Assembly (NCBI RefSeq): GCF_003334255.1
Contig: NZ_QOWU01000007.1
Strand: one strand, 5' to 3'
Length of the DNA: 64,000 nt
Origin: Escherichia coli
GTDB taxonomy: Bacteria; Pseudomonadota; Gammaproteobacteria; Enterobacterales; Enterobacteriaceae
The notes beneath the pieces are model-generated. The model was not told where the DNA came from. It saw nothing but the letters and a program-made list of their open reading frames with translations, and ran no database searches. Every line of letters starts with the position of its first letter. Position 1 is the first letter of the stretch. The position numbers and the translations under genes are program-made. This document shows positions 10,242-49,454 of the stretch, one piece after another.

Positions 10242-13200
10242 TTACACCTTTTCCACATTCACAAGGAAGGACTTAAACTCCGGCGTCTGCGTGTTCGCAT
10301 CACCAACGAATGGCGTTAAAGTATTGGCAATAAAGCCTTTTTTAGCTACGCCTTCATAGCCCCAGTGAATCGGAATACCGATGGTATCGATATCTTTGCC
10401 GTTCGCTTTCAGCGTGCGAATACGTTTGGTCACCACCGCTTTGGCTTTGATATAGCCACGGTTGGAGGAGACTTTCACGGTATCGCCCTGGGCAATGCCA
10501 AGTTTATTCGCCAGCGACTCCCCGATTTCCACAAACTGCTCTGGCTGCAAAATCGCGTTCAACAGCGCGTGTTTGGTCCAGTAGTGGAAGTGCTCGGTCA
10601 GACGATAGGTGGTTCCGACATACGGGAACTTATCGGCTTTACCCAATGCTTCGGCGTCGTCTTTAAAGATACGTGCAGCCGGGTTCGAGATAACGTTTGG
10701 ATGCAGCGGGTTAGTTCCCAGCGGCGTTTCAAACGGCTCGTAGTGTTCCGGGAACGGACCTTCCGCCATCTTATCGAGGGCAAACAGACGCCCCATGCCT
10801 TCCTGCTGCATGATAAACGGCCCGACGCCGCTACCCGGAGGCGCTGCGCTGTAGTCCGGAATATCCCAGCCGGTCCACTTAGTGCCGTCCCATTTCAGCA
10901 ACTGACGCTTCGGATCCCACGGGTTACCCTGCGGATCTGCGGAGGCGCGGTTATACAGAATGCGGCGGTTAAGCGGCCATGCCCATGCCCAGCCCAGCGT
11001 GTTACCGAGGCCAGACGGATCGGCGTTATCACGGCGTGCCATCTGGTTGCCTTCCGGCGTCCAGCTACCGGCGAAAATCCAGCAGCCACAGGAGGTTGTA
11101 CCGTCATCGCGCAATTGGGCGAACGAACTAAGTTGTTGGCCTTTCTTGACGATAACCGCACCGGTTGCCGGATCGGTAATATCGGCCAGCGCCTTACCGT
11201 TGCTCTCCATCGCCACTTCTTCTGAAGATGGCTCATGCGGAATGGCGTAGTTCCATGTCATGTTGAGCACCTGGTCCGGGTTCGCGCCACCCTGTTCGGC
11301 ATACATCTTGCGCAAGCGCAGGAAGATACCGGAGAGGATCTCGCCGTCAGTCAGCGCAATCCCCGGGGCGTCCGCACCTTTCCAGTGCCACTGTAACCAG
11401 CGACCTGAGTTAACGATAGAACCGTTCTCTTCCGCGAAGCAGGTCGATGGCAGACGGAACACTTCGGTCTGGATCTTCGACGAGTCAACTTCGTTCAGCT
11501 CACCGTGGTTCTGCCAGAAGTTAGAGGTTTCAGTGTTCAGTGGGTCGATGGTGACGAGGAACTTCAGTTTCGACAGACAACCGATCACTTTGTTTTTGTT
11601 CGGGAATGAGGCAACAGGGTTAAAGCCCTGGCAGATATAGCCATTGACCTTGCCCTCTTTCATCATCTCGAAGTATTGCAGGACGTCGTAGCCTTTATCC
11701 CACTTCGGCAACCAGTCAAAGCCCCAGCTATTTTCCGCCGTCGCTTTATCACCAAAGAAGGCCTTCATCATAGAGACGAAGAATTTCGGGTAGTTGCCCC
11801 AGTAGTTTACCTGGCCTTCCAGCAGCGGTTTTGGCGTGTTGGCGGTAAGGTAGGTTTGCAGATCGGTCTGCTTCTCGCTTGGCAGCGTCATGTAACCTGG
11901 CAGGCTCTGCGACAGCAGCCCCAGGTCCGTCAGCCCCTGAATATTGGAGTGACCGCGCAGGGCGTTAACGCCGCCGCCTGCCATCCCCATATTGCCGAGC
12001 AGCAGCTGGATCATCGCCATCGTACGAATGTTTTGCGCACCAACGGAGTGTTGCGTCCAGCCGAGGGCATACAGGAACGAGGCAGTTTTATCGTGAGCAC
12101 TGGTTTCTGCGATGTATTCGCAGACTTTCAGGAACGCGTCTTTTGGCGTACCACAGATGTTTTCAACCACATCTGGCGTGTAGCGGGAAACGTGCTGTTT
12201 CAGCAAGTTCCACACGCAGCGCGGATGTTGCAGCGTGGTATCGCGTTTGGCGAAGCCGTTTTCGTCCAGTTCATAAGTCCAGGAGGATTTATCGTACTTG
12301 CGTTTTTCCGCGTCGTAGCCGGTGAACAGGCCATCTTCAAAGCCGTAATCCTCACGCACGATCAGGCTGGCGTTGGTATAGGCTTCGGTGTATTCGCGGT
12401 TGAATTTTTCATTGTTCAGCAGGTACAGCAATACGCCTGACAGGAAAGCAATGTCAGTACCGGAACGAATAGGGGCATAGTAGTCAGCTACCGCCGCCGT
12501 ACGCGTAAAGCGAGGATCGATCACAATCAGCTTCGCGCCGTTGTGAATTTTGGCTTCCATCGCCCAGCGGAACCCGACCGGGTGAGCTTCAGCGGCATTA
12601 CCGCCCATCACCACGACGAGGTTGGCGTTCTTGATGTCGACCCAGTGGTTGGTCATCGCACCGCGACCAAATGTTGGAGCAAGACTTGCTACCGTTGGTC
12701 CGTGTCAGACACGCGCCTGGTTGTCGACCGCGAGCATACCCAGCGCGCGGGAGAATTTTTGCGTTAAATAGCCGGTTTCGTTACTCGACGCGGAAGCACA
12801 CAGCATCCCGGTGGAGAGCCAGCGGTTAACAGTCACGCCTTCGGCGTTTTGCGCAATGTAGTTAGCATCGCGGTCTTCTTTCATCAGTTTGGCGATGCGA
12901 TCAAACGCCTCTTCCCAACTGATTTGCTGCCATTTATCAGAACCTGGCGCACGGTATTCCGGAAACTTCAGACGGCTTTCGGAGTGGATGAAATCCACCA
13001 GGCCAGCGCCTTTCGGACAAAGTGCACCGCGGTTGACCGGGTGATCCGGATCGCCTTCGATATGGAAGATAGATGCTTTGGCGTTTTTTGCTCCGTCACC
13101 GAGGCTGTACATCAACAGCCCACAGCCTACGGAACAATAGGTGCAGGTATTACGGGTTTCGCGGGTGCGCAGCAGTTTATACTGCCGGGTTTCCGCGAGT

Positions 13201-13292
13201 GCTACGCTGGGTGCAAAACCCAGTGCCGCTGCCGTGGTGCCTGCCATACCGCCAGCGCAGATCTTAAAGAACTGCCTTCTGCTGACCTGCAT
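10242..13292 (-). CDS. fdoG: formate dehydrogenase-O major subunit, selenocysteine-containing (in-frame UGA at 12705-12707)
   Basis: ORF-track ORFs 12705-13292 (195 aa, Tat signal RRQFFKICAGGMAGTTAAALG) and 10242-12656 (804 aa) are in the same frame, separated by one TGA; combined length 1016 codons. Confidence 0.9.
12660..12704 (-). promoter_or_regulatory. probable SECIS stem-loop directly 3' of the fdoG UGA codon
   Basis: mRNA reads UGA CAC GGA CCA ACG GUA GCA AGU CUU GCU CCA ...; small hairpin GCAA/UUGC with GUC loop in the position expected for a bacterial SECIS. Confidence 0.5.
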
Positions 13293-13485: not shown

Positions 13486-14319
13486 GTGAAAAAAACACAG
13501 CGAAAAGAAATCGAAAATGTGACAAATATCACAGGTGTTCGTCAAATTGAGTTATGGCGGCGTGATGATTTACAACACCCACGGTTAGATGAGGTCGCGG
13601 AAGAAGTTCCCGTTGCGCTGGTCTACAACGGCATTTCGCATGTGGTGATGATGGCGTCGCCCAAAGACCTTGAGTACTTTGCGCTCGGTTTTTCGCTTTC
13701 CGAGGGGATTATCGAAAGTCCGCGCGATATCTTCGGCATGGATGTCGTTCCTTCCTGTAATGGTCTTGAAGTACAAATTGAGCTTTCCAGCCGCCGCTTT
13801 ATGGGGTTGAAGGAGCGCCGCCGGGCGCTGGCGGGACGTACGGGCTGTGGCGTATGCGGCGTGGAGCAACTTAATGACATCGGAAAACCGGTGCAGCCGC
13901 TACCGTTCACCCAGACGTTTGATCTCAACAAACTGGATGATGCATTACGTCATCTCAACGATTTTCAGCCAGTGGGGCAACTGACTGGTTGTACTCACGC
14001 CGCTGCCTGGATGTTGCCATCTGGCGAACTGGTCGGCGGGCATGAAGACGTGGGTCGCCATGTGGCGCTGGACAAACTGTTAGGCCGCCGGTCACAAGAA
14101 GGGGAAAGCTGGCAGCAAGGTGCGGTACTGGTTTCCAGTCGTGCCAGTTATGAAATGGTGCAAAAGTCGGCGATGTGCGGCGTAGAGATTTTGTTTGCGG
14201 TGTCTGCCGCGACCACGCTTGCTGTAGAAGTGGCTGAGCGCTGTAATCTGACACTGGTAGGTTTTTGTAAACCGGGTCGGGCAACGGTTTATACCCATCC
14301 GCAGCGTTTGAGCAATTAA
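13486..14319 (+). CDS. fdhD: formate dehydrogenase sulfurtransferase / accessory protein FdhD
   Basis: 277-aa ORF divergent from fdoG; matches recalled FdhD. Confidence 0.9.
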
Positions 14320-21767: not shown

Positions 21768-21822
21768 TTGTCGGATGCACGACCCGTAGGCCGGATAAGG
21801 CGCTCGCGCCGCATCCGGCAGT
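21768..21822. repeat. REP element between rhaD and rhaA
   Basis: gtaggccggataaggcgctcgcgccgcatccggca. Confidence 0.75.
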
Positions 21823-30605: not shown

Positions 30606-30692
30606 GTAGGCCTGATAAGACGCTATCAGCGTCGCATCAGGCATCCTGCTCAAATGCCGGATGCGGCGTAAACGCCTTATCCTGCCTGCAAA
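30606..30692. repeat. REP/BIME element between yiiM and cpxA
   Basis: gtaggcctgataagacgctatcagcgtcgcatcaggca ... gccggatgcggcgtaaacgccttatcctgcctgc. Confidence 0.8.
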
Positions 30693-35667: not shown

Positions 35668-35770
35668 ATGCCTGATGCGCTTCGCTTATCAGGCCTACAT
35701 GAATTCTGCAATTTATTGAATTTGCAAACTTTTGTAGGCCGGATAAGGCGTTCGCGCCGCATCCGGCATG
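35668..35770. repeat. REP/BIME element between pfkA and sbp
   Basis: gcctgatgcgcttcgcttatcaggcctac ... gtaggccggataaggcgttcgcgccgcatccggca. Confidence 0.8.
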
Positions 35771-48855: not shown

Positions 48856-49386
48856 TTACGCTTTGTAGCTTAATTCTTCGATGGTGTGGAAATGGTTGGT
48901 ATAGATGCAAATGTCGCCTGCAATATCCAACGCCTTTTCAGCAATTTCACGGGCGCTAAGTTCAGTGTTTTCTAACAGCGCGCGCGCCGCAGCCTGGGCG
49001 TAAGGGCCGCCGGAGCCGATAGCAATAAGATCGTTTTCTGGCTGCACCACGTCACCGTTACCGGTGATGATAAGCGATGCAGTTTCATCCGCGACTGCCA
49101 GCAGTGCTTCAAGTTTGCGCAGCATGCGATCGGTACGCCAGTCTTTTGCCAGCTCAACGGCGGCTTTGACCAGATGGCCCTGATGCATTTCCAGTTTACG
49201 TTCAAACAGTTCGAACAGCGTAAAAGCATCCGCAGTACCGCCCGCAAAGCCCGCGATGACTTTGTCGTTGTACAGACGGCGGACCTTTTTCACGTTGCCT
49301 TTCATTACGGTATTGCCCAACGTGGCCTGACCATCACCAGCGATGACCACATGGCCGTTACGGCGTACGCTTACTATAGTTGTCAC
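48856..49386 (-). CDS. hslV: ATP-dependent protease subunit HslV
   Basis: (M)[37 protein letters not shown]; full match to recalled HslV. Confidence 0.95.
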
Positions 49387-49454
49387 GAGCTGACCCCTTG
49401 GTTACGAATACAGAGTACAAACCCCGTACAAAAGTACGGGGCATAATGCAATTA

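Follow-up and report, generated by a model that had tools for sequence, protein, structure and literature searches.

An in-frame UGA in Escherichia coli fdoG followed by a bacterial SECIS element whose upper helix covaries among homologues

Within a 64-kb stretch of Escherichia coli DNA (hereafter the window), the reading frame of fdoG, the gene for the catalytic (alpha) subunit of formate dehydrogenase O, runs through a single UGA at positions 12707-12705 of the minus strand. We regard it as almost certain that this UGA, codon 196 of fdoG, is translated as selenocysteine (Sec) by way of a SECIS element and SelB. The recoding site is already known and ordinary: fdoG is one of the three selenopolypeptide genes of E. 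coli (PMC4009273), the SelB/SECIS mechanism has been described (PMC8124441), and the E. coli SECIS is characterised by an upper stem-loop placed 11 nt after the UGA, by a bulged U17, and by the bases G23 and U24 in the apical loop (PMC8659212). These sources agree with a preliminary description of the window, which had called the site a known feature of formate dehydrogenases and not a novelty. A full-length, selenium-containing FdoG of ~110 kDa is reported in literature cited by PMC4009273.

The gene occupies 10242..13292 on the minus strand and comprises 1016 codons including the recoded UGA. Downstream of it on the same strand follow fdoH for the iron-sulfur beta subunit (9327..10229; TIGR01582, 478.7 bits; annotated as fdoH), fdoI for the cytochrome b556 gamma subunit (8695..9330) and fdhE for a formate dehydrogenase accessory protein (7769..8698; NF002925, 604 bits), and fdhD for the accessory sulfurtransferase lies divergently on the plus strand (13486..14319; TIGR00129, 340 bits; annotated as fdhD). 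The gamma subunit scores 453.3 bits with the FdoI-specific model NF007924 against 243.6 bits with the FdnI model. With fdoH, fdoI and fdhE downstream, fdhD divergent and a gamma subunit of the FdoI type, the synteny is that of the fdo and not the fdn locus. The whole window is colinear with positions 4,072,531 to 4,136,901 of E. coli K-12 MG1655, with 13 mismatches, and its first 25 kb are 100% identical to E. coli strains G1/2, G6/7 and G8. Between this fdoG and that of K-12 MG1655 (b3894), 2 of 3051 nt are mismatched, none of them within the recoding region. The match to b3894, the synteny and the FdoI-type gamma subunit together uphold the earlier naming of the gene as fdoG. As a matter of nomenclature, the PGAP annotation gives it the label ‘fdnG’, despite the fdo synteny and the match to b3894.

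At its N-terminus FdoG carries a probable twin-arginine (Tat) signal peptide, MQVSRRQFFKICAGGMAGTTAAALGFAPSVALA (13194..13292, minus strand), with a predicted cleavage site. The twin-arginine motif SRRQFFK can be read from the translation at residues 4-10. A TAT_signal domain was not reported by the Pfam search of FdoG, so the Tat signal, which the earlier reading had also seen in the N-terminal segment, rests on this motif and on the alignment to the N-terminus of FdnG. The Pfam search found PF04879 (Fe4S4) before the UGA, PF00384 (Molybdopterin), and PF01568 (MGD-binding) towards the C-terminus; a single Molybdopterin domain, residues 107-589, runs across the UGA position. With the NCBIfam equivalog model TIGR01553 for alpha subunits of the membrane-bound FDH-N/O type (cut-off 814.2), the part of FdoG after the UGA reaches 1278.8 bits by itself, and the N-terminal part 271 bits.

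Translated in a single frame from 13292 to 10242 on the minus strand, the gene gives 195 codons, the UGA (12705..12707), 820 codons and a terminal stop, that is, a protein of 1016 codons. The RNA of this strand reads CGU GUC UGA CAC GGA around the recoded codon and continues in the same frame to GCG AUG ACC; directly 3' of the UGA it is CACGGACCAACGGUAGCAAGUCUUGCUCC, as had been quoted before. A mechanical list of open reading frames contains two entries here, one of 195 aa (12705..13292) and one of 804 aa (10242..12656). The second begins at the first ATG, at 12656, and 16 codons separate the UGA from that ATG. Since these 16 codons share the frame, the correct sum is 195 + Sec + 820. The preliminary description had placed a TGA at 12705-12707 of the minus strand within one continuous frame, which coordinates and translation bear out, and had considered that the two segments might prove to lie in different frames, which they do not. 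Its total of 1016 codons is correct, but the 804 aa that it entered into the sum are those of the first-ATG reading frame only, where 820 codons follow in reality. It had warned that annotation blind to recoding would call the gene a pseudogene; the mechanical call does split it, whereas RefSeq itself annotates fdoG as one CDS of 3051 nt.

Alignments to proteins of known structure locate the UGA within the enzyme. Over their full length, the N-terminal 327 residues of FdoG align with FdnG (structure 1KQF), and the UGA falls on residue 196 of that chain (Sec196; the non-standard residue is printed as X). It also aligns with the equivalent X (Sec) of the selenocysteine-containing Desulfovibrio FdhA of structure 6SDR. 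Homologues have either UGA or a cysteine codon (UGY) in this column, the latter in 99 metagenomic homologues among the matches listed. Judged by alignment, the fdoG UGA is at the Sec codon position, which would be that of the molybdenum ligand.

The RNA around the UGA matches the SECIS_3 family of Rfam (RF01989) over the full length of the model. The 59-nt element at 12652..12710 (minus strand, read from 12710 to 12652) covers model positions 1-59 of 59 with 84.3 bits, above the gathering score of 63, and an E-value of 1.4e-18, and it is the only SECIS match across the 64-kb window. Numbering the U of the UGA as nucleotide 1, the upper stem-loop comprises nt 15-32 (12676..12693, minus strand), delimited by the list of pairs and by covariation among homologues, and it probably constitutes the minihelix bound by SelB. 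It stands at the canonical spacing, with an 11-nt spacer after the UGA. At its base G15-G16 pair with C32-C31; U17 (12691) is bulged and unpaired; A18-G19-C20-A21-A22 then pair with U30-C29-G28-U27-U26, and the apical loop holds G23 (12685) and U24 (12684). All seven pairs of this helix are canonical. The lower stem (12662..12704, minus strand, in the Rfam register) encloses the upper helix and is imperfect in this sequence, with the mismatches A.C (12703/12663) and A.G (12699/12667). In the minimum free energy (MFE) fold its register slips by one, restoring pairing. We take the downstream hairpin to be a bona fide bacterial SECIS.

The stability of the hairpin is a separate matter. The MFE of the stem-loop lies between -13.8 and -15 kcal/mol, the latter being the value for the 60 nt after the UGA. 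Compared with dinucleotide shuffles, the fold of these 60 nt is not exceptional (z = -0.22); an equal or lower energy is reached by 67 of 200 shuffles. Given this z-score, and a mean MFE over nt 1-48 that is the same for UGA-type and cysteine-type homologues (see below), we rejected stability as a criterion. It is the combined match in sequence and structure that goes beyond chance, rather than the stability of the hairpin. The preliminary description had expected a stem-loop just 3' of the UGA where a SECIS should be, and one does form there, scoring 84.3 bits with SECIS_3 and no stabler than shuffled sequences. It had also proposed that the lack of any stable stem-loop with the conserved apical loop would count against recoding; a stem-loop with G23/U24 in its loop was found, and such a refutation test would have been better built on the U17/G23/U24 signature than on a ‘stable stem-loop’.

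The comparison with known elements, suggested at the same time together with the folding of the 60 nt after the UGA, places the signature at the same positions in fdoG, fdnG and fdhF. The SECIS of fdhF, encoding formate dehydrogenase H (Sec140), is the prototype of the bacterial element. Like that of fdoG, it starts with UGA-CAC-GG, has an 11-nt spacer, a bulged U17 and a G23-U24 apical loop, and closes the base of the upper helix with G15-G16 and C-C. The two differ in detail: the upper helix of fdoG has one extra pair, A22-U26, and a 3' arm longer by one nucleotide; its loop is the 3-nt GUC or the 5-nt AGUCU in place of GGUC; and pair 18 is A-U in fdoG and U-A in fdhF. The lower-stem sequence of fdhF is unrelated to that of fdoG, and its protein, of 715 aa, is cytoplasmic. 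At the two pairs that join wobble positions with each other, the RF01989 consensus shows G-C and C-G, both of which are A-U in E. coli, and the lower stem of fdoG contains A.C and A.G in the consensus register, whereas the register slipped by one pairs.

Homologues provide a view on which parts of this structure are maintained. The scan of one genome per species used a pattern in which only UGA-His-Gly-Pro and Phe-Gly-Arg-Gly-Ala-Met-Thr are prescribed, and the 25 nt containing the upper helix may vary. At least 120 UGA-type loci were recovered, giving 72 distinct 56-mers among the matches listed; these come from Gamma-, Beta- and Alphaproteobacteria, Acidobacteria, a Desulfovibrio, a Geobacter relative and an actinobacterial MAG. 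Across these 72 listed sequences the upper helix is paired in 97.4% of cells, and registers slid by 1-3 columns leave only 29-56% of cells paired. The identities of the bases change along with each other: among the same 72, pair 18-30 is GC in 51, AU in 9, CG in 8 and GU in 3, pair 19-29 is GC in 57 and UG in 14, and pair 21-27 is CG in 35, AU in 32 and GC in 4. Compensatory (double-change) cells number 67-71 in the matches listed, against 25-28 ± 4 in shuffles, and 0 of 500 shuffles reach the observed value, in a statistic that ignores kinship. Pairs 18-30 and 21-27 each link two third-codon positions, so their covariation cannot be explained by selection on the protein. The change at 19-29 brings with it a pair of substitutions in the protein, Ala to Ser and Ala to Gly. 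The upper helix thus appears to be kept by compensatory substitutions among homologues. In the lower helix the pattern itself determines most columns, and those left free are paired in 28-48 of the 72 listed sequences in either register. At free third-codon positions, neither the Rfam nor the slipped register showed covariation among these 72; as neither is supported there, we confine any statement on the register to the present sequence.

Cysteine-type homologues serve as a control for the contribution of the protein. The same pattern with UGY in place of UGA, applied to metagenome contigs, gave 99 distinct sequences among the matches listed. The UGA and UGY sets stem from different collections, the flanks are fixed by the pattern in both, and sequences in either set are counted regardless of kinship. 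The 99 listed UGY sequences encode almost the same flanking peptide as the UGA type. In the matches listed, the wobble pairs are paired in 99% of the UGA set compared with 42-52% of the UGY set, and the full signature is present in 64 of 72 UGA and 0 of 99 UGY sequences. Position 23 is C in 83 of the 99 listed UGY sequences and position 24 is mixed, so that the GU loop is lost. In Sec forms the loop codon is AGU or GGU, encoding Ser or Gly, and in Cys forms it is GCN, encoding Ala. Folding energies among the matches listed depend on the span considered, with mean MFE values alike over nt 1-48 (UGA -19.6, UGY -20.1) and unlike over nt 14-33 (UGA -8.8, UGY -4.8). The loss of helix and GU loop in the Cys homologues ties the specific upper hairpin to the UGA and not to the protein. 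One element of the signature has to be set apart: U17 is invariant also in the 99 listed UGY homologues, since it occupies position two of a Val codon, and the fact that it is conserved cannot serve as evidence by itself.

A further comparison is offered by the paralogue fdnG, which encodes the alpha subunit of formate dehydrogenase N (1KQF) and resides in a separate operon, fdnGHI as opposed to fdoGHI-fdhE with the divergent fdhD; the latter locus maps at about 88 min. FdnG shares with FdoG the number of the Sec codon, 196, and the surrounding peptide. The 66 nt that follow the UGA in fdoG recur unchanged in K-12 fdnG, and the SECIS elements belong to the same SECIS_3 family; 4 nt upstream of the UGA the two genes differ by a single base (CGU versus CGC). 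Overall identity amounts to 77% for the proteins and 74.8% for the genes, and identical residues use the same codon in only 58% of cases. The longest exact run between them, 71 nt, begins 3 nt before the UGA, and only one 20-codon window, at codons 195-216, reaches a codon identity of 100%. Among the matches listed, the identical 56-mer occurs in genomes of Yersinia, Photorhabdus, Providencia, Citrobacter and Enterobacter, and this sharing across Enterobacterales means that the identity of fdoG and fdnG is not a conversion event within E. coli. Such frozen synonymous sites argue for selection on the RNA over a recent conversion event.

One may ask whether the enterobacterial fdoG/fdnG SECIS carries information beyond the docking of SelB, which we consider quite unlikely. 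Hints in this direction are the lower-stem register that departs from that of Rfam, the 71 nt of frozen synonymous sites and the recurrent 56-mer. If it were true, the second constraint could be a tuning of ribosome pausing or of the competition with release factor 2 (RF2), or a titration of SelB that couples both isoenzymes. The simpler reading is that selection acts only through SelB binding, with gene conversion perhaps contributing now and then.

More fundamentally, the hairpin could be incidental: conservation of the nucleotides after the UGA would then reflect only the protein, or gene conversion between the fdoG and fdnG paralogues, and read-through would involve no dedicated RNA signal. 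Strong conservation of the peptide HGPTVASLAPTFGRGAM is in keeping with this, as is a fold no stabler than shuffles, and the 71-nt identity of the paralogues could in principle stem from gene conversion. Against this stand the Cys homologues, which encode nearly the same peptide and have lost both the third-position pairing and the GU loop (0/99 versus 64/72 among the matches listed), and the compensatory changes at 18-30 and 21-27, a covariation of synonymous sites that selection on the protein could not produce. As the same 56-mer is found in other Enterobacterales, within-E. coli conversion does not account for it either. On the contrast with the Cys homologues and the synonymous-site covariation we rejected a constraint by the protein only, and hold an incidental hairpin to be highly improbable.

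To the reading of the UGA as a genuine stop, with fdoG a pseudogene or split gene made of a 195-aa fragment and an 804-aa product from the ATG at 12656, we give practically no credence: the mechanical list does yield precisely these two frames, and competition by RF2 (PMC8124441) should cause some termination at this codon under a shortage of selenium or SelB, but the pieces share one frame, the Molybdopterin domain spans the UGA, conservation is high over the 16 codons between UGA and ATG (HGPTVASLAPTFGRGA), the UGA persists in 5426 of 5426 E. coli genomes and also across Proteobacteria and Acidobacteria, and it aligns with a crystallographic Sec and is directly followed by a high-scoring SECIS. 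The pseudogene or split-gene interpretation was rejected on the single frame, the domain across the UGA, the Sec alignment and the SECIS.

Reading the UGA as selenocysteine calls for the sel machinery, which the preliminary description had proposed to confirm elsewhere in the genome. A tRNA gene search of the 64-kb window found none, and hence no tRNA-Sec, and the sel genes are likewise absent from the window; their presence was therefore checked across the species rather than in this particular genome. Among complete E. coli genomes, selC is present in 5425 of 5426, and selB-selA and selD are each present in 5426 of 5426, so that selABC and selD are confirmed at the level of the species. The fdoG recoding segment was found in all 5426 of these genomes, with a second place (fdnG) in most; this set includes the strains that match the window without a difference over 25 kb.

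These components suggest how decoding of fdoG as a selenoprotein would proceed. On approach of the ribosome, the mRNA just 3' of the UGA would fold into the SECIS hairpin, whose upper stem-loop (nt 15-32) would be bound by the C-terminal winged-helix domain of SelB, as established knowledge of the system leads one to expect. SelA would turn the selC tRNA into Sec-tRNA with selenophosphate supplied by SelD, and the 11-nt spacer would hold the complex of SelB, GTP and Sec-tRNA(Sec) at the right distance for a UGA in the A site. SelB would then deliver selenocysteine in competition with RF2, and the resulting Sec would be expected to ligate the molybdenum in the active site of the Tat-exported FdoG.

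For the annotation of this and similar genomes, the site offers a sanity check. A scan that takes UGA as a stop splits fdoG into 195 and 804 aa and might call it a pseudogene, and recognition of the SECIS restores a single selenoprotein gene of 1016 codons. Beyond that, the homologues illustrate two textbook points in fresh sequences, with no new biology in either: what identifies a bacterial SECIS is a specific signature together with UGA-linked covariation, rather than the stability of the hairpin, and the RNA element leaves its imprint on the protein, where the codon of the apical loop specifies Ser or Gly in place of Ala.

Over the 64 kb of the window, which is colinear with Escherichia coli K-12 MG1655, the sole structural difference from K-12 lies in the rhaD-rhaA intergenic region (21776-21820), where K-12 is longer by about 325-370 bp of REP/BIME-type repeat (K-12 4,094,350-4,094,675). 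Across this region the E. coli strains G1/2, G6/7 and G8 each give a single unbroken match to the window, and in many other strains the match is split in two, with a span that is ~370 bp longer. Rfam searches returned a match to naRNA4 (30609-30686, minus strand, 78.6 bits) and two matches to ES036 (35691-35732, minus strand, 48.2 bits; 55085-55126, plus strand, 39.6 bits), all three of which are probably REP-type intergenic repeats. Also recovered were the ClpQY (hslVU) promoter element (49384-49441, minus strand, 63.6 bits) and, ahead of rpmE, the L31 ribosomal protein leader (54053-54105, plus strand, 60.1 bits), whose positions agree with the K-12 annotation of hslVU and rpmE.

The formate dehydrogenase gene at 10242-13292 is located in the fdoGHI-fdhE operon and its K-12 counterpart is b3894 fdoG. 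In RefSeq E. coli genomes PGAP names the homologous gene 'fdnG: formate dehydrogenase-N subunit alpha', a label that is a naming artefact of the equivalog model TIGR01553, which is shared. The twin-arginine motif SRRQFFK is plain at fdoG codons 4-10 (13271-13283); Pfam did not report a TAT_signal domain on the full-length FdoG protein.

The longest exact identity between fdoG and its paralogue fdnG spans 71 nt (12640-12710), in genes that are elsewhere 74.8% identical. An identical 56-mer from the UGA region is present in Yersinia, Photorhabdus, Providencia, Citrobacter and Enterobacter. Downstream of the UGA, the codon in the loop of the SECIS hairpin is fdoG codon 203 (nt 22-24 counted from the U of UGA; 12684-12686). 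At this position, among the matches listed, homologues with the UGA have a Ser codon (AGU) or a Gly codon (GGU), and those with Cys in its place mostly have an Ala codon (GCN). Judged from these sequences, the amino acid at the loop codon appears to be dictated by the SECIS loop.
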